From Deltaproteobacteria bacterium (GTDB taxonomy: Bacteria > Desulfobacterota > Desulfarculia > Adiutricales > Adiutricaceae), in NCBI GenBank assembly GCA_031288745.1, contig JAITQT010000109.1:1-32974 (forward strand): 32,974 nucleotides of DNA, given 5' to 3'. The position numbers and the translations under genes are program-made. Below are positions 3,093 through 22,168 of this stretch, piece after piece (the first letter of the stretch is position 1; every line of letters starts with the position of its first letter). The notes under the pieces were generated by a model. It was not told where the DNA came from. It made no database searches and saw only the letters and a program-made list of their open reading frames with translations.

Positions 3093-4718
3093 TTGATCGT
3101 CAAAACCGACTATCTGGTTATAGGCACCGGCATAGCCGGGCTAAGTTTCGCTCTTAAGGCTGCTAAGACCGGCGAGGTGGCGATACTGGCTAAACACGAA
3201 GCCTATGACACCAACACTAATTTAGCCCAGGGGGGCATAGCCGCAGTCATGGGTGACGACGATCTGGTGGAATACCACGTTAAAGATACCCTCGACTCCG
3301 GTCAAGGCCTAAGTCACCTAGATATCGTCAAAGCGGTGGTCGAGGCGGGGCCAACGATGATAGAGCAACTAAACGATTTGGGAGTGCCCTTTACCACTAG
3401 AAACGGACGAGAGGACCTTCCAGAGTTGGGTCAAGAGGGAGGACACAGCCGCCGCCGCATTATCCACGCCAAAGATATGACCGGACAAGCGGTTCAAAAG
3501 ACTTTGGGGGAAAGGGCTAAGGAAAACCAAGCTATCAGCTTTTTCGAGTACCACCAAGCCCTCGATCTCATCTTAGCCGAAGGTGATTTAACTGATTCTA
3601 GACCTCGGGCCGTGGGGGCCTGGGTCTTAGACGTTAAAAGCAGTACCCTTAAGGCCTTTATGGCTAAAACCATCGTTTTAGCCACCGGAGGCTCAGGCAA
3701 AGTCTACCTCTACACCACCAATCCTGACGGGGCCACCGGCGACGGCTTGGCTATGGGCTGGCGATGCGGGGTTAAGGTGGCTAATTTAGAGTTCGTTCAA
3801 TTCCACCCTACCTGCCTCTATCACCCACAGGTTAAAAATTTTCTAATCTCAGAAGCCGTAAGAGGCGAAGGCGGTCGATTAATAGATAACGAAGGCCGAT
3901 TTATTATGAGCGGTCACCCCCAAGGCGATCTAGCCTGTCGAGACGTGGTGGCCCTAACCATTGACGCTAATATGAAAAAAAGCGGAGCTGAGCACGTCTA
4001 TCTAGATATCACCCATCGCGACCCTAGCTTTATCAAAGATAGATTTCCTAAAATATACCAAACCTGCTTCCGTTTAGGCATAGACATCACCAAAACGCCC
4101 ATTCCGGTGGTCCCGGCGGCCCACTACCAATGCGGAGGGTTAATGGTCGATATAAACGGACAAACTAACATTAATAACCTATACGCCATAGGAGAAGTGG
4201 CCTGCACTGGTCTTCACGGGGCCAACCGTCTGGCCTCAAATAGCCTTCTGGAAGCCTTGGTCATGGCCGATAGAGCGGCTAAAGATTCAAGTGATAAACT
4301 ATCCGCCATCGCCTCCCCACCAATAACTAATCTAGAGCCTTGGACCATAGGCCGCCTGGGCACAGCCCCAGCCGAAGCGGTGCTGATTTCTCAAAGCTGG
4401 GATGAGATTCGCCGCTTTATGTGGAACTACGTGGGCTTAGTTAGAAGCGATCAAAGGTTGATGATGGCCTTTAAGAGGCTCGAGCTAGTTAAAAGTGAGA
4501 TAGACGATTTTTTTAGAAACTTTGAGGTTGACGCCGACTTAGTAGAAGTTAGGAATATTGCCGCAGCCGCTGATCTCATTATCTGTAGCGCAGCTTTGCG
4601 CAAAGAAAGCCGCGGCCTTCACTATAGTTTATCGTGGCCCAATAGAGACGATCTTAATTTTGCCCGCGATACTATCTTAATTAATCACTCTCCCGATATT
4701 CGCCCCACTCCCCATTAA
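3093..4718 (+). CDS. nadB: L-aspartate oxidase
   Basis: 541-aa ORF with the N-terminal FAD fold DYLVIGTGIAGLSFA, plus RGEGG and HGANRLASNSLLE, typical of the NadB/succinate dehydrogenase flavoprotein family. The length fits NadB. TTG start preceded by GAGAGG. Confidence 0.88.
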   Translation: MIVKTDYLVIGTGIAGLSFALKAAKTGEVAILAKHEAYDTNTNLAQGGIAAVMGDDDLVEYHVKDTLDSGQGLSHLDIVKAVVEAGPTMIEQLNDLGVPFTTRNGREDLPELGQEGGHSRRRIIHAKDMTGQAVQKTLGERAKENQAISFFEYHQALDLILAEGDLTDSRPRAVGAWVLDVKSSTLKAFMAKTIVLATGGSGKVYLYTTNPDGATGDGLAMGWRCGVKVANLEFVQFHPTCLYHPQVKNFLISEAVRGEGGRLIDNEGRFIMSGHPQGDLACRDVVALTIDANMKKSGAEHVYLDITHRDPSFIKDRFPKIYQTCFRLGIDITKTPIPVVPAAHYQCGGLMVDINGQTNINNLYAIGEVACTGLHGANRLASNSLLEALVMADRAAKDSSDKLSAIASPPITNLEPWTIGRLGTAPAEAVLISQSWDEIRRFMWNYVGLVRSDQRLMMAFKRLELVKSEIDDFFRNFEVDADLVEVRNIAAAADLIICSAALRKESRGLHYSLSWPNRDDLNFARDTILINHSPDIRPTPH

Positions 4719-4722
4719 CGCT

Positions 4723-7305
4723 ATGAACCCTAATTTAGCTAACTTAGCTCCCCTTTCCAGGGCTAATCAAGAAATCAACGAGCCTAAGAGCCGCCGGACC
4801 TTCGTCGCGCTCACGGCCATCTTAATTTTAATAGCCTCTGCAGCTACGGCTTCTTTTTTCTACTTTCGCACTAAAGAACAAGCCGCTCTCACTGCTAACT
4901 CTTTAGCCCTACGTGAACGGGCTCTAAATAACCTCTGGGCCTGGGTAGGAGGCTCTGAAAATGGCTTAAAGCGAGGTCGCCCCCCCTTTCTGGCCACTCT
5001 TAAGGCTAGCGATGGGGCGGAGTCGTTATTAGGTCTGGGAGCCGAATATTTTCTAGAAAACCGCTTTGATTTGGCCTTAGCCGCTTTTGAAAAAGCGGCT
5101 AAAACTATCGGCCCTGACCCGCGGCTCTTAGCCTTACAAGCCGCAGCTAACCTTAGGCTGCTTAACTACGGCCGGGCCAAAGACCTTTACCAAGAGGCCT
5201 TGGCCCTTAGAAGCCCAGAAGATCAAAGTCTCGAACGGTCCTCCGAACACTTAGGCTTAGCCGTCAGCCTGTTTCATCAACCAGACCCCCAAGGGGCTCT
5301 TAAAGAGTCTATAGCCGCCCTCTCAATACGCTCTCGCATCCTCGGCCCCCACCATCCCGATACCCTAGCCGCTCTAAACGTGGAAGCCACCTCCCTTTTA
5401 GCCCTTAACCGGGCCCAAGAGGCGGGTGAAAAACTACTTAAAGCCGTAAACGATTCTTTAGCTCAAGGTCTAAACCTCAAAGAGCCGGTCTTATGGGATT
5501 GCCTAGGGATTCTAACCTTAGCCTACGAAACCCAAGATCGCTTAGCCGAGCTAACCCCTTTAATAAATTCTTTTAAATTAGCCCAAGCTGAACCAGAATC
5601 ACCACGAGAACAAACCCAGCCAGACCTAACAAAGGACTCGGGGCTAACCTCAGCCTTGGGCACAGAGCCTACCCTAGAAGAGGATTCGACCCTAAACACC
5701 TCATTACATAACTCAAATGTTACCCATAATAATTTAGGTGCTGATTTAAGCGCTCAAAATCCTCCCCTGCAAAATATACCGCCAGAGAACCTAAGGCCTG
5801 ATACCCCCAAATACCAAGAGGGGCTGGGGCCGCAGACTCCTACTAGCCCAAGCGCCTTAAGGGTTTTGCCCGCCTCCTTTGATCCAGACCTAGCCAGAAA
5901 GATCATCTCCGAAATCCCCCCCCTTTCTTTTTCCTCTGTTCGCCCAGCCTTGGCCCTAGCTCTCATTTCCAGCCTAACGGGCAACTCGGCTGCAGGAGGT
6001 CCCCCGGATTTGGAAACAATCTGCCGCTCGCCCGTGCCCGGACGGGCCCATGAGATTTTCGATCTGTGTTTAATCTTGGCCCAAGGCTTAGCCGCAGCCG
6101 AGGCCCAAAACGAAGCTCTAGCTATAGTGCGTTGGCTAACTATCTCTAGCGAAACAATCCCCGAGCAACTTAACCCCGAAAGCCTAATCGATCTGCGTTT
6201 GTTATCGGCCGTGCTTTGGCGCAATCTTAATAAATACTCTCAAGCCGAGCAAGATTACCGTAAAGTCCTCGAGTTACTAGATGGTGCGCCCCTAAAACAA
6301 GAAGATCTTGTTTCTAAAACTATCTTAGCCGGCTTGGGCCTATCAGATTCTTTATTAGAGCAAAATCACTTGCCCATAGAATCAGAGCTTGAGCTGACAA
6401 CCGTACTAACTAAGCTTAAAAGTCTTAAACTTAATAGCCCCTTTGAACAAAATTTATACGCCCCAATTTTACTAGCTCAGCTCGGCTTAGTGACCAAGGC
6501 CTCGGGCCGAGATAAAGATAGCCGCGCCTTTTTTAACCAGGCCCTTAAGAGCGCCGAAAGTCAGCTAGGCATAAATTTAGGGACCAGCCTAGAGCCATCT
6601 GCTAAGGAACCTAAAAAAATTGCCTCCAAGAGCCGCAAAAAAGGGAAAAAAAAGAACAGTGTCCAAGCTACCCCCCCGGCCCCAAAGGTACCGAACCAAA
6701 ATTGGCTCGATAACGAGCGCCGCGATTTTCTCACCTCTTTTCTCGATCGTTTAGCTCTAGCTAGTAATCTCTCGCGGCCTCGAGCGCAAAAAAGCAAAAT
6801 TTTCAACCAATTTTTTATCCCCAACCTCTCCCCTACCGACGACACTCCACCCCAAAGCCCGGAGATCATGCGTTTGGAACTAACGGCCTTAAAACTCTTA
6901 GGCCGAACCGAAGAAATCGAGCCGATGATAACCTCCGCTTTGGAGTATTACCAAAGTCGAGGAGGCTTTTACTCACCTCTCTATTTACGATATCAAAGCC
7001 TTTGGCTTAAATATTTAGAGGAAAGCGGCGATATAAACTCCTTGTTGGCCGCCCTCGATCAACTGGCCGCTAACCCTGGTTTTAACGACCCACGCAACAA
7101 TTTGACCTTTACTGTTTCAGCCTTAAAGTACAAGGCCAGAGTCCTAGAAAATGCTGGCTTGGGCACCCAAGCTTGGCAAACCCTAAATCATGCGGCTTAT
7201 TTAATTTCCGAGCAAGCCCATTTGGGTGATTTAGCCGCCCTAGCCTCCTCCATTCAAACTGACCTTGAGCGTCTAAAACCTCAAGAAATTCCCCAAAATC
7301 ATTAA
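4723..7305 (+). CDS. membrane-anchored TPR-like repeat protein, function unknown
   Basis: 860-aa ORF starting 5 nt after the nadB stop. It has an N-terminal TM segment (FVALTAILILIASAATASFFYF), Ala/Leu-rich TPR-like helices, a Pro/Ser/Thr-rich linker and a Lys-rich patch (KKIASKSRKKGKKKN). Confidence 0.7.
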   Translation: MNPNLANLAPLSRANQEINEPKSRRTFVALTAILILIASAATASFFYFRTKEQAALTANSLALRERALNNLWAWVGGSENGLKRGRPPFLATLKASDGAESLLGLGAEYFLENRFDLALAAFEKAAKTIGPDPRLLALQAAANLRLLNYGRAKDLYQEALALRSPEDQSLERSSEHLGLAVSLFHQPDPQGALKESIAALSIRSRILGPHHPDTLAALNVEATSLLALNRAQEAGEKLLKAVNDSLAQGLNLKEPVLWDCLGILTLAYETQDRLAELTPLINSFKLAQAEPESPREQTQPDLTKDSGLTSALGTEPTLEEDSTLNTSLHNSNVTHNNLGADLSAQNPPLQNIPPENLRPDTPKYQEGLGPQTPTSPSALRVLPASFDPDLARKIISEIPPLSFSSVRPALALALISSLTGNSAAGGPPDLETICRSPVPGRAHEIFDLCLILAQGLAAAEAQNEALAIVRWLTISSETIPEQLNPESLIDLRLLSAVLWRNLNKYSQAEQDYRKVLELLDGAPLKQEDLVSKTILAGLGLSDSLLEQNHLPIESELELTTVLTKLKSLKLNSPFEQNLYAPILLAQLGLVTKASGRDKDSRAFFNQALKSAESQLGINLGTSLEPSAKEPKKIASKSRKKGKKKNSVQATPPAPKVPNQNWLDNERRDFLTSFLDRLALASNLSRPRAQKSKIFNQFFIPNLSPTDDTPPQSPEIMRLELTALKLLGRTEEIEPMITSALEYYQSRGGFYSPLYLRYQSLWLKYLEESGDINSLLAALDQLAANPGFNDPRNNLTFTVSALKYKARVLENAGLGTQAWQTLNHAAYLISEQAHLGDLAALASSIQTDLERLKPQEIPQNH

Positions 7306-7562: not shown

Positions 7563-7708
7563 CCACCGCAGCAGGATCGCTCCCATGGTCGAGGCTCTTA
7601 GCCCTCGACCATTCTAATTCTAATCATAGCAGTTTCAAAAAGCAAGGCCTTTATTTTGTCTTGCTGTCCCTGTACCGCGAGTTATTCTGGGTACTGCAAC
7701 GAGTGTCC

Positions 7709-7961
7709 GTTCACAAAAGTGAACGTTGCGGTGCCAAGCCTATTGAAAGGGACGACAGATATCGCAACAATGTAGCCCCCTCTAGGAGCTTAGTAATTTT
7801 AACATTAATCAAAATTCAAATACATGGTTCAAGTCCCCTGGCTAAGTAGAAACCTCAGAAGAACTAATGTTAAGATCTTAAGGCGTATGCTAAAATTTAT
7901 TTACAACTCGAAAGTCGCTACCAGCCGCAACGTGGGGAAAAAAGACTTGGTGAACTATTAC
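7709..7961 (+). repeat. R-element copy 2 (only copy without a MITE insertion; candidate structured ncRNA or ORF-less mobile element)
   Basis: It runs from GTTCACAAAAGTGAAC to GACTTGGTGAACTATTAC. The 5' module (CCTATTGAAAGGGACGAC..CAATGTAGCCCCCTCTAGGAGCTTAGTAATTTTAACATT) and the 3' module are shared with the other copies. Internal helices are described in the findings. Confidence 0.75.
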
Positions 7962-12148: not shown

Positions 12149-12715
12149 TTAAGTGACTATATTATAGAGTCCCGGCTTTCTAGCCGGAGGTTTAGGCAAA
12201 TCCCTTTCTGGAAAGCCCAGACAAGCCGAGCCAATCACTCTGTAATCGTGGGGAAAGCCAAGGCTAGTTAAATAGGATCTAAAATCAGGCTCGTCAGCCG
12301 CGCTAGCCACCTGATTAATCCAGCAGCCGCCTAAGCCCACCACGTGGGCGGCCAAAAGCAGATAGCCCAAAACCAAGGCCCCGTCCTCCACCGGCCAATA
12401 AGAATCTTTTCTATGGGCCCCCACGATCACGAAGACCGGGGCAGTACCAAAATTTACGCTATAGGCTTTATTGGAGACTACTTCCTTATAAAGGTCAAAA
12501 CCAGGCTTCTGGACAGCCTCCCGAAGCTTTAGGGTGAACTCTGAGATCCTATCTAAGCCGATTACAGCCGTAGCGTGCCAGGCTTGCGTACCCCTGGCCG
12601 TGGGGGCGTAGCTAGCCGCATCCAACACCTCTTTTAAAAGCTCATCTGGCACTGAGAGTGGTTTAAAGACTCTTACGCTACGCCGCTCAACTAGCCATTT
12701 AAGATCTTTGTTCAT
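12149..12715 (-). CDS. nitroreductase family protein
   Basis: 188-aa ORF. The N-terminal RRSVRVF, SYAPTARGTQAWH and the overall length are typical of the NADH/FMN nitroreductase fold. Confidence 0.75.
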   Translation of the reverse strand: MNKDLKWLVERRSVRVFKPLSVPDELLKEVLDAASYAPTARGTQAWHATAVIGLDRISEFTLKLREAVQKPGFDLYKEVVSNKAYSVNFGTAPVFVIVGAHRKDSYWPVEDGALVLGYLLLAAHVVGLGGCWINQVASAADEPDFRSYLTSLGFPHDYRVIGSACLGFPERDLPKPPARKPGLYNIVT

Positions 12716-13101
12716 AATTAATACACCTCATTACTTTAAAATGTTAGCGCTCCTTACGAAGGGTTAAGCGGCCCTTTAAAGCATCTGCGCTTATTAGTCT
12801 AATCTCAACTTTATAATCCATAACCTAAAATAATCTATCATTTTTTTTACTTATTCGCCAATACCCTCATACGTTACCCTACCACAGCCTGGGTTGCTCC
12901 AAGCCACATTAGCCAACTTTGATAGAAGGAAGAAACGTTTTAAAAACTTAATCGCCTAAAAAATTAACCTTTCTAACAACCCTATCTCCCACCGCCTTGG
13001 GGGCCAAAGGGTTAAATAGACCTCGCTAGGTAAAAAAGTAAGGCTAAAGGCTTTTGATTTTAATACACCAAACCCGAGATAATAAAATTAAATGTTATTA
13101 T

Positions 13102-13211
13102 TGAGCGAAGCGCAAAAAGTCCCCTTTATCAGTCTTTAAATTTGTAACATAGTCTTATCACTAGTTAATTTTTTAGACTATTGTGCTTTTAAGAGGTTTT
13201 TGCGCTTCGAT
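13102..13211 (+). mobile_element. 110-bp MITE copy a
   Basis: Terminal inverted repeats GAGCGAAGCGCAAAAA / TTTTTGCGCTTCGATC. Flanked by a perfect 6-bp direct repeat ATTATT (13096-13101 and 13212-17). Confidence 0.8.
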
Positions 13212-13661
13212 CATTATTTTATTTTTTTATTCTTATCAAAGATAAATTTACTAGCCAACCTACTCGTAAGTTTCTTCGTTAACGATAGGGGCAGATTACA
13301 GGCTAATCGAATCTCACTAATTTTAGCACCGGCTACCAGAGCTGTCAAAGCTCCGGCCAGAGCGGCCTATGACCTAACCAGCGGTTTTCTCCCTCCTCAG
13401 GGGCAAAAGACCTAAATGATAGTCTCCAAAGCAGCTCCCATGGAGGTGATTTTGGCAGTTAAGACACCCGCTCCGACTACTCCCCAATGATACTACCGGT
13501 GATTTTAGCAGTGGTGGTCATCTCGAAAAATCGTTTGTTTATTAATCAAGGCCTTTGGTTTTATCATAATCCAGCACCTTGAGCTTTTAAGAAACAAGGC
13601 CTACCCCAGAAGATTGAAGAGCATTTAGGGCCACTCCATAAAAATATTGATAACCACACTT

Positions 13662-13771
13662 GATCGAAGCACAAAAAGTCACCTTTATGAGTCCTTAAAT
13701 TTGTAACAGGGCCTTATTACTAGTTAATTTTTTAGACTACTTTGCTTTTAAGGGGTTTTTGCGCTTCGATC
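13662..13771 (+). mobile_element. 110-bp MITE copy b (inside the IS110-family pseudogene)
   Basis: TIRs GATCGAAGCACAAAAA / TTTTTGCGCTTCGATC. Flanked by a perfect 6-bp direct repeat ACACTT (13656-61 and 13772-77). About 87% identical to copy a. Confidence 0.8.
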
Positions 13772-13819
13772 ACACTTAAGCCTAGGATAAGGTCCAAAAC
13801 CTACGAGCTATCAAGCCCC

Positions 13820-14548
13820 AACCATTACAAGCTCACAAACTCTTTATCATGGTAGGTTTTAACCTCTCACTGGGTTGCTGATAACATTTTTGGGACCAAC
13901 TGCCAAATGATTATCGCAGGACTAATTACGAAAAAAACCCGAATGAGACCTTAAGAATTCTACAGTTAGTTAGCGCCTTAAGGCTTCAAAACAATTAGTA
14001 TTATAAAGGCCCAAATAGGGAAATTGGCTGGTTAAGTCTGTGAAGATATTACAGAAATGTGTGAAAATAATCTCGTATTTACGAGCAAAATTGATACGCA
14101 TGAGCTAGGACTTGCACGTCGCATGATTAAGAGCGGCTTAGAGACTAAATTAGATCTTTTCCAGGCCATTAACTGAGTATCGTTCAAAGCCGCTCTGAGC
14201 CTTCTAGCTGAACTTAGCGATGATTGGTCGAATTTTCGTTGGGCTAATGCCTTGTTGAATTGGGGTAGAAAGAACTCGGGCCACAACGAGTTGACGGGTA
14301 AAAGAAAGAGTGGCCAAAAGTTAAAAGGCAATAAGCACCTAAGAAGGATTTTAGGCGAGATAGCCCAGCTGACCGCGAGAACTTAGTAGTATTTTAAACA
14401 AAAACTACAAAATCTAAAGCTAGGAGACGAGGCGACCAGAGGCTATTGAGCTGTTGGTCATAAAGTGCAGATAGCCGTTTATATCGTTCTACTAAAGGCA
14501 ATCCTTACCAAGACAATAAGGTTGAGTACGACGCTCTGGTAGCCAAGA
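13820..14548 (+). pseudogene. IS110-family (DEDD / Transposase_20 type) transposase pseudogene, C-terminal two thirds recognisable
   Basis: The frame from 14102 reads ..LFQAIN*VSFKAALSLLAELSDDWSNFRWANALLNWGRKNSGHNELTGKRKSGQKLKGNKHLRRILGEIAQLTART**YFKQKLQ..AVGHKVQIAVYIVLLKA. This has the IS110 hallmarks (LLAE.gD..rF, sG......KrGNkhLRr.L, A.ArKl...iy..Lk). In-frame stops lie at 14174, 14384, 14387 and 14447. Weaker frame-shifted similarity (GTNCQMIIAGLI, ETLRILQLVSALR) extends up to about 13820. Confidence 0.65.
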
Positions 14549-14792
14549 AAAATGCTTTGCTCTGGAGAAAGAACCTTAAGAAATAACATCTGGTCTCTTC
14601 TGAAAATAAATTTAGTAATTATAGAAGATAACTAACTTTATTAGGCTCAGATTAAGGCGCAGGCTAATAACCTAAGCTATGAACATTAAGTAGTCTACTC
14701 TGAATCGCCAGCAGTGGTAGCCATGGATAGTCTCAAAGCATCATTAAACTACTTTGGTAACGGGTTTTTTGGAGTTTTATCTTGGCCCACTT

Positions 14793-15108
14793 GTAACCGT
14801 TCACCAAGTCTTTTTTCCCCACGTTGCAGCTAGTAGCGACTTTCGAGTGGTAATTAAGTTTGATCGAAGCGCAAAAACCTCTTAAAAGCACAATAGTCTA
14901 AAAAATTAACTAGTAATTTGGCTATGTTATAAATTTAAGGATTGATAAAGGGGACTTTTTGCGCTGCGATCAACTTTGATTTAATGTTAAAATTACTAAG
15001 CTCCTATAGGGGGCTACATTGTTTCGGTTTGTGTCGTCCCTTTCAATAGGCTTGGCCCCGCAACGCTCTCTATTGTGAACGGGCCCTTAAACGTTCACAT
15101 TGGTGAAC
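14793..15108 (-). repeat. R-element copy 3 (carries a nested MITE and an internal deletion)
   Basis: The plus strand reads GTAACCGTTCACCAAGTCTTTTTTCCCCACGTTGCAGCTAGTAGCGACTTTCGAG.. then the MITE, then ..AATGTTAAAATTACTAAGCTCCTATAGGGGGCTACATTG..GTTCACATTGGTGAAC. The ends GTTCACCAA (14799-14807) and TTGGTGAAC (15100-15108) are perfectly complementary. Confidence 0.75.
14862..14971 (-). mobile_element. 110-bp MITE copy c (nested in R copy 3)
   Basis: TIRs GATCGAAGCGCAAAAA / TTTTTGCGCTGCGATC. The 6-bp flanks differ by one base (AAGTTT vs AACTTT). Confidence 0.8.
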
Positions 15109-15252
15109 TACACGCCCACTTTATCCATAGTTGAGGGATAGATTAGCTAACTATAAGTTTTTTCTATTTTTTCTTATCTATAGCTGAGTCATTTTTAGGG
15201 CCAACACTCTCAAAGCCGTGGAGGTTTGCTATGATTGTGCCGTGATACCAAG

Positions 15253-16875
15253 CTACTCGTAAGGTTCAGCCACAGGGTGATCGAAGCTTTGGATTAAAGG
15301 GACAGATGGGGCCTCGGGGGCCTTGACTTTAGGCTGAGCTTTAAAGGGGTCTAGGTTAATTTGCTCAATAGGCCACACTTGCGGCCACATTGGATGAGGC
15401 CTAATATTAGAGAGTCTTTTATCAATTAACATATCAAAGGTTTTTTGATACAACATGACGTAGGGCCGTTTTTCCAAAGCGTAAACGTTTAACCGCCTTA
15501 ATAAACTCTCTCTAGTCATATTATTTTGAGTCGAGAGGCCCTCTATCAGCTGGTCAACTTGAGAGTCGTTAAATCTGGCCGGATTTGATTTAATAGTGGC
15601 CCGCGAATCTAAAAACCCGCCTAGCCACATCTCGGGGCTTGGATACTCGGGCCGCCTAAAATCCAGTAACATATCCCAATCTCCCTTTTCCAAGATTCCC
15701 TGACCGTGAGCCCCACTAAGGGGGACTAACCTTACCGCTAGCCCGTGGGCAGATAGCTTAGAGGCTAGGACCTCCGCATCACTCCGCCCCGATGGGTCGT
15801 CGGCCTGGTAGACTAAATCTAGCGGTATCCGGGAGGGCCCTAAAGTAGAAAGTAACTGAACCGCTCTTTTTTCCAACTCGGCCGCCGAGGGGGGGGCCCC
15901 GACCGGTAGGCTTGGGGCTAAGCCGGCTGGGAAAAAACCGACCGGCTTTACTCTTTCCCCGCTAAGAGATAAAGCCGAAGCGGCTAAATCAGTAATTAAC
16001 TCTCTAGCCCCATCCATTTTTAGATAAGGCCTTAAGAGATTAAAAGCCAAAAATTTAGTCTCAAAAGATGTTACCTTAATTAATTCAAAGCGATTATCTA
16101 GCGGAGAAGTATATTGGGGCTGCCAAGCCAAGTGAGCCTGGTTTTCAATAAATAAGGCGTACCGTTTTTGTGGATCTTCGTTATAATAGAACTCAATTCG
16201 ATCGAGTTTGGGAATTACCTGGGCATCGGAGCGAATTTTTAACTTTATTAGTGTAGGTTCAACAGAATCGACCTCAAAGCCCCCAGAGCCTAAACTATGC
16301 TGGTCTAAATAGCCCGAGGGCCGGGCGGACAGAGAAGGACTAATCAAAGAAGCCATAGGCGAGGTTAGAGAGGCTAGAAAGGGGGGCCAAGGAGAATCTA
16401 GGCGGAATCTAAAAGTATGGGGCCCTACAATCTCAAAAAACTTTAGCCTCGGAAAATAAATGCTTCCGGTTTGGGTGCTCATTAAGCGATCAAAACTATA
16501 AAGAGCGGCGTAACTATCTAAGAGCGTTCCGTCTGGAAAACTTTGACCTTCCTTAAGGATAAAGGTATAGAGCAAACCATCTTCGGAGACTCTATAAGTG
16601 GCTGCGGCCGAATTTTTATTGTCGAGCACCGAACTTGCGGGCTCGAGATCAAATAGACGGCGATAGCAGGTCATGATCACGGGCCAGGCTGCGGGGTCAG
16701 GAGGGTAGCGCTGGGGGTCTAGGCTGACCGGGGCCTTAGGGTAGACCAGCCTTAAGGCATCGGCCCAAATTAAGTCTTTAGGGCTGAAAATCAAAAAAAG
16801 GAGTAAAAAAAAAAGCGCTCCCTTAGATGGCTTAAATTTGGTTTGAGCTTTGCTTATTAGTCGGCTATGGTCCAC
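15253..16875 (-). CDS. ABC transporter substrate-binding protein, family 5 (peptide/nickel type), orphan
   Basis: 540-aa ORF with a GTG start, an N-terminal hydrophobic signal-like segment (ALFFLLLFLIFSP) and family-5-like stretches (LDPQRY.., FELIKVTSFETKFLAFNL). No permease or ATPase genes are adjacent. Confidence 0.7.
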   Translation of the reverse strand: MDHSRLISKAQTKFKPSKGALFFLLLFLIFSPKDLIWADALRLVYPKAPVSLDPQRYPPDPAAWPVIMTCYRRLFDLEPASSVLDNKNSAAATYRVSEDGLLYTFILKEGQSFPDGTLLDSYAALYSFDRLMSTQTGSIYFPRLKFFEIVGPHTFRFRLDSPWPPFLASLTSPMASLISPSLSARPSGYLDQHSLGSGGFEVDSVEPTLIKLKIRSDAQVIPKLDRIEFYYNEDPQKRYALFIENQAHLAWQPQYTSPLDNRFELIKVTSFETKFLAFNLLRPYLKMDGARELITDLAASALSLSGERVKPVGFFPAGLAPSLPVGAPPSAAELEKRAVQLLSTLGPSRIPLDLVYQADDPSGRSDAEVLASKLSAHGLAVRLVPLSGAHGQGILEKGDWDMLLDFRRPEYPSPEMWLGGFLDSRATIKSNPARFNDSQVDQLIEGLSTQNNMTRESLLRRLNVYALEKRPYVMLYQKTFDMLIDKRLSNIRPHPMWPQVWPIEQINLDPFKAQPKVKAPEAPSVPLIQSFDHPVAEPYE

Positions 16876-21353: not shown

Positions 21354-21747
21354 GTAACCGTTCACCAAGTCTTTTTTCCACACGTTGCGGCTAGTAGCGA
21401 CTTTCGAGTTGTCATTAAGTTTTAGCATACCCTTAAGTTCTTAACATTAGTTCTTTTGAGGTTTCTACTTAGCTCTTTGCTCCAACCATATATTTTAACT
21501 TTAGTAATGTTGATCGAAGCGCAAATACCTCTTAAAAGTAAAATAGTCTAACAAATTAACTAGTAATAAGGACATATTACAAATTTAAGGACTGATAAAG
21601 GGGACTTTTTGCGCTTCGATCAATGTTAAAATTACTAAGCTCCTATAGGGGGCTACATTGCTGCAGTATGGGTCGTCCCTTTCAATAGGCTTAGCCCCGC
21701 AGCGTTCTCTCTTGTGAACGGGCCCTTAAACGTTCACATTTGTGAAC
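21354..21747 (-). repeat. R-element copy 4 (most complete copy; carries a nested MITE)
   Basis: Full 3' module (21354-21505, rc) and full 5' module including both GTTCAC/GTGAAC hairpins (21622-21747, rc). Interrupted only by the MITE at 21512-21621. Confidence 0.8.
21512..21621 (-). mobile_element. 110-bp MITE copy d (nested in R copy 4)
   Basis: TIRs GATCGAAGCGCAAATA / TTTTTGCGCTTCGATC. Perfect 6-bp TSD AATGTT (21506-11 and 21622-27). The uninterrupted R copy 2 has a single AACATT at the equivalent site (7801-7806). Confidence 0.85.
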
Positions 21748-21935: not shown

Positions 21936-22168
21936 GTTCACAAATTGTATTGAGAGGGACGACCCATACCACAACAATGTAGCCCCCTATAGGAACTTAG
22001 TAATTTTAAAATTTATCCCTGTTAAAATATATAGTTGTAGCAGAGAGCTAAGTAGAAACCTCAAAAGAACTAATGTTAAGATCTTAAAGGCATGCTAAAA
22101 CTTAATGACAACTCGAAAGTAGCTACCAGCCGCAACGTGGGGAAAAAAAGACTTGGTCGAACGGTTAC
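21936..22168 (+). repeat. R-element copy 5 (5' helix strand deleted)
   Basis: GTTCACAAATTGTATTGAGAGGGACGACCC..CAATGTAGCCCCCTATAGGAACTTAGTAATTTTAAAATT....CTAAGTAGAAACCTCAAAAGAACTAATGTTAAGATC..GACTTGGTCGAACGGTTAC. It ends 20 nt from the pilX-like stop codon, in convergent orientation. Confidence 0.7.

Follow-up and report, generated by a model that had tools for sequence, protein, structure and literature searches.

The locus studied here is a dead, 5′-truncated relic of an IS110-family insertion sequence (IS), and the 15/16-nt direct repeat found at it is neither a target-site duplication nor an element boundary. We give this reading a probability of about 0.8. The locus lies in a window of 32,974 nt, the whole stretch of DNA that was analyzed, from a deltaproteobacterial genome assembly of 3.46 Mb in 511 contigs. 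The relic belongs to a new, unnamed lineage within the known IS110 family. Its features and those of the surrounding DNA are collected in Table 1.

Table 1. Features at and around the IS110-family relic (positions refer to the window).
Feature	Position	Strand	Basis
Left copy of the 16-nt repeat (GATAGTCTCCAAAGCA)	13418..13433	+	unique ORF-free DNA
113-nt MITE, copy b (element proper 13662-13771)	13660..13772	+	6-bp duplication ACACTT
IS110-family transposase pseudogene, C-terminal fragment	13828..14586	+	tblastn with C182 read-through; full-length relatives
Pfam Transposase_20 (PF02371) match within the pseudogene	14156..14404	+	30.9 bits
Downstream non-coding region of the IS, candidate seekRNA/bridge RNA site	14587..14743	+	nhmmer, alignments
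Conserved two-tier hairpin (predicted)	14686..14747	+	RNAalifold on three copies; covariance model R1
Hairpin, outer stem	14686-14691 with 14740-14747	+	RNAalifold
Hairpin, inner stem	14692-14701 with 14713-14723	+	RNAalifold
Hairpin, 3′ internal loop carrying the right repeat copy (14726-14740)	14724-14739	+	RNAalifold
Block T, proximal part, broken by R at 14792/14793	14744..14792	+	aligns with C182, C249 and C422
R copy 3 (MITE), TIRs GTAACCGTTCACCAA and TTGGTGAACTACAC	14793..15113	+	TIRs, 8-bp duplication, unoccupied site
113-nt MITE, copy c, inserted centrally in R copy 3	14861..14973	-	copy of the 113-nt MITE family
Block T, distal part, ending GGTTTGCTATG	15122..15233	+	alignment to C182 right end, score 44

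An earlier interpretation made from the letters alone (the sequence-only reading) had described a stop-ridden IS110-family transposase on the plus strand and had proposed the two Pfam domains of the family as a check. In a six-frame search of the organism's own genome, PF02371 matched the plus strand of the window (30.9 bits against a cut-off of 21.3, E=9.7e-7), with three stop codons inside the match (one TGA and two TAG); PF01548, the N-terminal DEDD, RuvC-like catalytic domain, gave no match on the window's contig (C77). The transposase relic is confirmed by this match and by a tblastn search with the read-through translation of a paralogue on contig C182, which aligns over 13874-14518 (E=1.3e-26) and again at 14491-14598, with a weak match at 13828-13869. 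Over its C-terminal 130 aa, this paralogue aligns with 14153-14521 at 48% identity (E=9.3e-23), and the peptide quoted in the sequence-only reading is located in a 44-aa ORF at 14252-14386. The pseudogene ends with a stop codon at 14584-14586. Along the tblastn alignment with C182 its frame is interrupted by eight in-frame stops and at least two frameshifts, at ∼13870 and ∼14491-14518. What survives is the C-terminal ∼55-60% of a transposase of ∼410 aa, from 13828/13874 to 14586, corresponding to residues ∼170/185 to the stop.

Eleven full-length relatives begin to align with the window only at residue ∼185, and their residues 1-185 gave no tblastn match in 12700-13870. Smith-Waterman local alignments of 12716-13827 with the left end and the N-terminal coding region of the paralogues C182 and C411 stayed at null level. 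Based on this late start of the alignments, the absence of PF01548, and the null-level scores, we conclude that the IS copy is 5′-truncated at ∼13780-13870. In addition, the window reads NELTGK where all five aligned relatives read NESAGK, which replaces an invariant Ser of the C-terminal domain by Leu; by analogy to IS621, this Ser would have a catalytic role. Lacking the DEDD domain, an intact frame, and the conserved Ser, the element is inert and unable to transpose. We therefore class it as an IS110-derived relic and not as a working member of the family.

The nearest intact proteins in a collection of 5.8 billion proteins are 405-425 aa long and contain both PF01548 and PF02371; one of them scores 251 bits against the NCBIfam model NF033542 (“IS110 family RNA-guided transposase”). 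They share ∼50% identity with the C182 paralogue over its C-terminal 130 aa. With the 44-aa ORF of the window as query, the same 5.8 billion proteins yielded no candidate and no close intact relative. IS621 and ISCro4 matched in the C-terminal domain only (E=1.7e-9 and 8e-7, respectively), and the lineage is distant from these two structurally studied elements. The non-coding regions of metagenomic relatives (contigs P0001 and P0003) could not be aligned with the window lineage at the DNA level.

Within the genome itself, nine places match PF02371 and five match PF01548, the latter domain being present in the paralogues C182, C34, C336, and C198. All of these places are broken, truncated, or at contig ends, and none in the 3.46-Mb assembly is an intact paralogue able to define the ends of the element. 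Fragments of the same lineage are found on C182 (decayed, from left to right end), C34 and C411 (5′ parts), and C249 (3′ part), and the window copy shows ∼70% nucleotide identity with its paralogues. C182 has ∼190 nt upstream of tnp, the gene for the transposase, and its left flank is unlike that of C411. A scan of C182 for inverted repeats returned chance-level pairs only (29 inverted pairs); the window copy has no left end.

Downstream of the pseudogene, positions 14587-14743 form a non-coding region that shares homology with the sequences after the stop codon in C182 and C249. These two paralogues have 370 nt of post-stop non-coding sequence in common, and the window aligns with its first part in blocks that include TTAACTAACTTTA, CTATGAACATTAA, and CTGAATCGC. 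A profile built from C182 and C249 only, with the window excluded, found 14605-14734 in a genome-wide nhmmer search (E=4.6e-6). For the three copies, RNAalifold predicts a two-tier hairpin of 18 pairs, three of which are kept through two-sided changes. The 3′ arm of its inner stem and part of the adjoining loop coincide with a motif termed M (14708-14726). The position occupied by the right copy of the direct repeat varies between paralogues (GGATAGTCTCA-AAGCA, GAATTGTATCGCGGGCG, and GGATGGTCTCGCGGGCG), and the stems covary. On the window hairpin, a covariance model of this structure, R1, reaches 85.5 bits; the site was itself used in building the model. A further R1 match at 4651-4749(-), which contains GATAGTATCGCGGGCA and sits within two intact ORFs, was rejected as chance (E=0.31). 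The single-sequence folding energy of the non-coding regions is unremarkable (z between -1.2 and +0.4). A search of Rfam 15 gave only noise and no bridge-RNA-like family, for the whole window at gathering thresholds and for 12700-15300 and C182 at E≤10.

IS1111-type elements carry their seekRNA in a non-coding region that follows tnp (Siddiquee et al. 2024, PMC11187229). Based on its position, its conservation, and its one covarying hairpin, we infer by analogy that 14587-14743 probably once encoded a guide (seek/bridge) RNA. The ORF-free stretch after the transposase had already been proposed as the site of such an RNA, and this proposal agrees with our results: the stretch is conserved and placed as in the IS1111-type elements.

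We next turn to the direct repeat. Both strings described in the sequence-only reading are present in the window, the left copy in unique DNA and the right copy, GATAGTCTC-AAAGCA, in the hairpin loop, and each occurs only once in the 3.46-Mb assembly. They had been taken to bracket an IS110 element of typical length (∼1.2-1.3 kb). Neither a role as element boundary nor one as target duplication is supported: the right copy is internal to a non-coding region conserved among the paralogues, and the left copy lies in DNA without IS homology. The argument from length fails as well: the element is 5′-truncated, IS-linked homology continues to ∼15233, and an ORF of 405-425 aa alone needs ∼1.23 kb, so that the 1.2-1.3 kb between the repeats cannot be a complete element. 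Target duplication is, moreover, uncharacteristic of both the IS110 and the IS1111 groups (PMC11187229).

The DNA around the left copy (13214-13659) is unique in the genome, and neither tblastn nor local alignment found homology in it to the left end, the N-terminal coding region, or the non-coding region of the paralogues. A DNA search of 40 genomes of the same family with 12716-13659 returned the MITE of the own genome and, in four relatives, matches of 25-40 nt (E 5e-4 to 9e-4); the left region had no homologue in these genomes. The best local alignment between the flanks scores 25, and its significance depends on the size of the search space: P is 0.004 for a right-hand segment of 80 nt, 0.02-0.05 for ∼200-300 nt, and 0.11 for the full flanks. 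Taken alone, the repeat is thus a borderline case against chance. Together with an M-like match (13507-13521 against 14710-14724, 13/15 identical positions), its summed score was reached in 0/500 shuffles, in a test that was designed post hoc, once the data were known. Within the relic interpretation, coincidence is the most likely origin of the left copy, at odds somewhat better than even; otherwise, this copy would be a relic decayed past interpretation. A small ORF on the minus strand (13416-13521) overlaps this stretch. It is frameshifted and Gly/Ala-rich, its TAKIT repeats underlie the left M motifs, and it has no paralogue in the genome.

Alternatively, the repeat could be the best-preserved piece of a longer duplication, in which 13214-13436 would be another version of the non-coding region in a more advanced state of decay. 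Such a copy could derive from a tandem or neighboring IS copy or from modules like those of ISPpu9, in which A/A′ boxes and related sequence flank tnp. In semi-global alignments, 13214-13440 reached z=2.9 against two non-coding regions, those of the window (P=0.007) and of C249 (P=0.013), whereas it is unlike the non-coding region of C182 (z=0.5); seven control windows stayed at z<1 in the same test. The aligned blocks (ACTAA.TTTA, GAGCGG..CTATGA.C..TAA, and ATG.AT.GTCTC) keep the order of the non-coding region, and a third match, 13231-13253 against 14596-14617, is collinear with the other two. ISPpu9 also provides a precedent for separable modules with solo copies (PMC12288879), and block T, which adjoins the non-coding region, occurs alone on C422, C496, and C252. 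However, the nhmmer profiles of the non-coding region are blank on 13214-13440 even in a search space of 1.1 kb, covariance model R1 has no match there, and no transposase remnant is found to its left. The left ends of C182 and C411 do not resemble their own non-coding regions, and the solo copies of T start at different points (C182 coordinates 250 and 190), so that no discrete box is defined. We therefore regard a second copy of the non-coding region as unlikely.

Quite unlikely, in our judgment, is the broader idea that the repeat is a fossil of a working part of an undescribed IS110 lineage, either a guide/site pair or a set of ISPpu9-like A/A′ module boxes. The neighboring M motif would then be the right-end (B-like) box ending ..TCATG, and the locus would offer a readable guide/site pair for an uncharacterized bridge-recombinase lineage. 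Read specifically as a guide/site pair, the repeat would have its guide segment in the right copy, in an internal loop of the seek/bridge RNA, and the DNA site recognized by this segment, an old left junction or donor end, in the left copy. The right copy does fill a 3′ internal loop that varies among paralogues between conserved, covarying stems, and the guide RNAs of IS1111/IS110 elements hold short stretches identical to their target strands (PMC11187229). The sequence adjoining the IS left end on C411 (CGGTCATGGGTA) resembles the corresponding part of the C249 non-coding region, and C182 shows a 13-nt inverted match 6 nt outside its left end. These two matches were, however, picked by eye among many chance-level repeats, the 29 inverted pairs included. 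The left copy lies 400 nt from the nearest recognizable IS sequence, no left end can be identified, and Rfam has no match in the region. Guide segments of IS621 and ISEc11 are short, and the contiguous match of 15-16 nt exceeds them. Taken together, this makes a guide/site pair very unlikely, and we retain the interpretation of the locus as a dead relic with a repeat that marks no boundary.

On its right side, IS-linked homology extends past the right repeat. In alignments with C182 and C249, it continues for ∼50 nt to 14792, resumes at 15122/15130, and ends at ∼15233. Aligned locally with the distal right end of C182, the sequence reached a score of 44, compared with 17.6±2.3 under the null. 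The homologous sequence, termed block T, is ∼165 nt long. All six genomic copies have the same right boundary, ..GGTTTCATG (..GG(G)TTTCATG), beyond which the flanks diverge. In the window, the distal end of T lies 20 nt short of the stop codon (15253) of a convergent gene for a solute-binding protein. The three solo copies of T mentioned above are without a transposase. The one on C422 begins 3 nt past the position of the right repeat, without significant similarity further left, so that the right end of the IS could be at ∼14743 and not at ∼15233. We favor the view that T is the terminal part of the IS and that the solo copies are truncated relics. It may instead be a separable module like ssr9 of ISPpu9 (PMC12288879) or an insertion target. 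Folding of a consensus of the six copies gave no convincing structure (alifold -6 kcal/mol).

Block T is interrupted by R copy 3, which begins 53 nt past the right repeat and is flanked by a perfect 8-bp duplication, GCCCACTT, at 14785-14792 and 15114-15121. Alignments identified the unoccupied site in C182 (GAGCCACTTGACGG), C249, and C422. R has ∼450 copies; genome-wide, its two modules have 480 and 498 matches, 324 of them paired. The duplication is perfect (8/8) in 74 of the 169 copies scored and 7/8 in 32 more. With its TIRs (GTAACCGTTCACCAA / ..GTGAACGGACAC), a duplication of fixed length (8 bp), a high copy number, and no coding capacity, R is an ordinary, very abundant MITE, and neither a guide RNA nor a target of the IS.

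The sequence-only reading had noted that the remnant sits among repeated motifs, the H/M blocks and R copy 3. The idea that the IS came to this site by targeting them is not supported. Events ran the other way round: R copy 3 with its perfect duplication entered IS-linked sequence. The flanks of R show no significant similarity to the IS right end. The M motif at 14708-14726 is simply the 3′ arm of the hairpin, and other occurrences of M, near other R copies (∼7563 and ∼21777) and in the genome, are as frequent as chance predicts for 15-mers when up to two mismatches are allowed. The sequence-only reading had itself cautioned that R was not obviously the bridge RNA of this element, a caveat that was borne out by the identification of R as a MITE inserted in an IS-linked block. 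R is thereby dismissed both as a bridge RNA and as a target of IS110 elements.

A second MITE family, 113 nt in length, is present in ∼400 copies, of which 169 of 216 full-length ones have a perfect 6-bp duplication. Copy b in the window is a simple insertion, as indicated by its perfect duplication at 13656-13661 and 13772-13777. The sequence-only reading had correctly recognized this copy as a MITE and had counted it within the bracketed element; it may lie inside or outside the IS, as recognizable IS sequence starts 50-100 nt to its right. Copy c has inserted into R copy 3, and the same nesting is found in 72 of the 324 paired R copies (22%).

Homology, 5′ truncation, target duplications, and nested insertion are all observed at the locus; the order of events that follows is our inference. 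First, an element of the IS110 family, with an IS1111-like layout in which a long non-coding region follows tnp, would have inserted ∼20 nt past the stop of the convergent gene for the solute-binding protein. Loss of the 5′ part and drift would then have left it at ∼70% nucleotide identity with the paralogues. Subsequently, R would have entered block T and created the 8-bp duplication; as this duplication has stayed perfect, we place the insertion after the decay of the IS. Copy c of the 113-nt MITE would have followed into R, and in a separate event copy b would have inserted just left of the surviving gene fragment, with its 6-bp duplication.

The locus alone carries little weight, as an ordinary genomic fossil of a well-known IS family. 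The relic serves as a stratigraphic marker, according to which R and the 113-nt MITE would have been active after the IS110 lineage had decayed. More notable at the scale of the genome are two MITE families of ∼400-450 copies each, one of which nests preferentially in the other.

The IS110 family corresponds to PF01548 plus PF02371 (NCBIfam NF033542). The relic in the window shares with it the Transposase_20 domain, above the Pfam cut-off. No convincing terminal duplication was found at this copy, whose ends no intact paralogue fixes. It differs from the family in its missing DEDD domain, its broken frame, and the loss of the conserved Ser.

By comparison with the IS1111-type elements ISEc11, ISPa11, and ISKpn4 (PMC11187229), the window lineage likewise has long, conserved non-coding sequence behind tnp and in the same orientation, which covers at least 157 nt in the window and 225-390 nt in C182 and C249. 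A conserved structure of stems and an internal loop is predicted for this region as well. Subterminal inverted repeats were not identified in the lineage, where C182 gave chance-level pairs only and the window copy has lost its left end. As a difference from these elements, C182 also has sequence on the upstream side of tnp (∼190 nt). For the window lineage, the guide RNA, its target logo, and any guide match are putative.

A third comparison is offered by ISPpu9, an element of Pseudomonas putida KT2440 in which tnp and ssr9 form separable modules (PMC12288879). Block T of the window lineage is likewise located downstream of tnp and solo elsewhere, and the tnp-proximal part and T end alike (..GGTCATG and ..GGTTTCATG). 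ISPpu9 has A/A′ and B/B′ boxes, whereas the window lineage has no defined boxes, the left boundaries of its solo copies differ, and its T is without conserved structure. The target of ISPpu9 is a REP sequence (PMC12288879). The IS in the window has no evident repeat target; here it was instead the repeat, R, that entered the IS-linked sequence.

R is a MITE of ~280 nt and more than a mere repeat. Its ends are the terminal inverted repeats GTAACCGTTCACCAA and ..TTGTGAACGGACAC, and it is flanked by an 8-bp target duplication; among the 169 copies scored, 74 show this duplication without mismatch and 32 others agree at seven of eight positions. In the 3.46-Mb genome assembly to which the window belongs, the two modules of R gave 480 and 498 BLAST hits, respectively, of which 324 were paired.

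Between the two modules, 72 of these 324 pairs (22%) hold a second, 113-nt MITE, whereas the inter-module target makes up less than 1% of the genome. Either the 113-nt MITE has a strong preference for the central part of R, or R and its insert propagate as a composite unit. About 400 copies of this smaller element are spread over the genome, and its 6-bp duplications are perfect in 169 of 216 full-length copies; a search of 40 genomes of the same family did not find it. Within the gene-free stretch 12716-13100, 36 nt at 12933-12968 show 75-81% similarity to internal sequence of the 113-nt MITE and are likely to be a piece of another decayed copy.

Coordinates of the small ORF and of the repeated and mobile elements in the window and its genome assembly (G000; C, contig; L, extracted locus)
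Feature	Location	Remarks
R	window 14793-15113; 157-223; 7707-7961; 21354-21747; 21948-22168	also genome-wide
113-nt MITE	window 14861-14973	nested in R copy 3
113-nt MITE	window 21511-21623	nested in R copy 4
Frameshifted small ORF	window 13416-13521	minus strand; reads MTTTAKITGSIIG / GVVGAGVLTAKITSMGAALETII*
Further IS110-family lineages	G000: C313, C58, C336, C166, C399, C49, C198, C120	
Third repeat family, ~102 nt	about C411:9925-10026 (locus L034 = G000:C411:9200-10200)	also ~30 other contigs
Solo block T, ~165 nt	G000:C422 (L033) 195-357; G000:C496:2747-2873; G000:C252:5-119	

The left copy of the direct repeat encodes the last residues of the small ORF, a Gly/Ala-rich frame that contains the TAKIT unit twice; the two left-hand copies of the M motif (13445-13459 and 13498-13512) coincide with these units. 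No paralogue of this ORF was found in the genome.

The genome also carries two or more other IS110-family lineages. Nearly all copies are interrupted by stop codons, truncated or run off the end of a contig; none of the IS110-family genes seen in the assembly is intact, and the longest open frame measures 288 aa (C120). A metagenomic relative of the window's transposase, P0003, is intact; the non-coding region downstream of it contains an internal repeat of ~165 nt with 74% identity (L026 1946-2245). The third repeat family comprises ~30-40 copies with 84-95% identity and an invariable end, ..GGCAAATGTTTTCGGTCCTGGGTATA; on C411, an IS110 fragment belonging to the window's lineage has its left end directly next to this terminus.

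Block T, the sequence following the non-coding region of the IS, also occurs as solo copies with no transposase nearby, all of which terminate in ..GGGTTTCATG. These copies resemble the unlinked ssr9 modules of the P. putida element ISPpu9.
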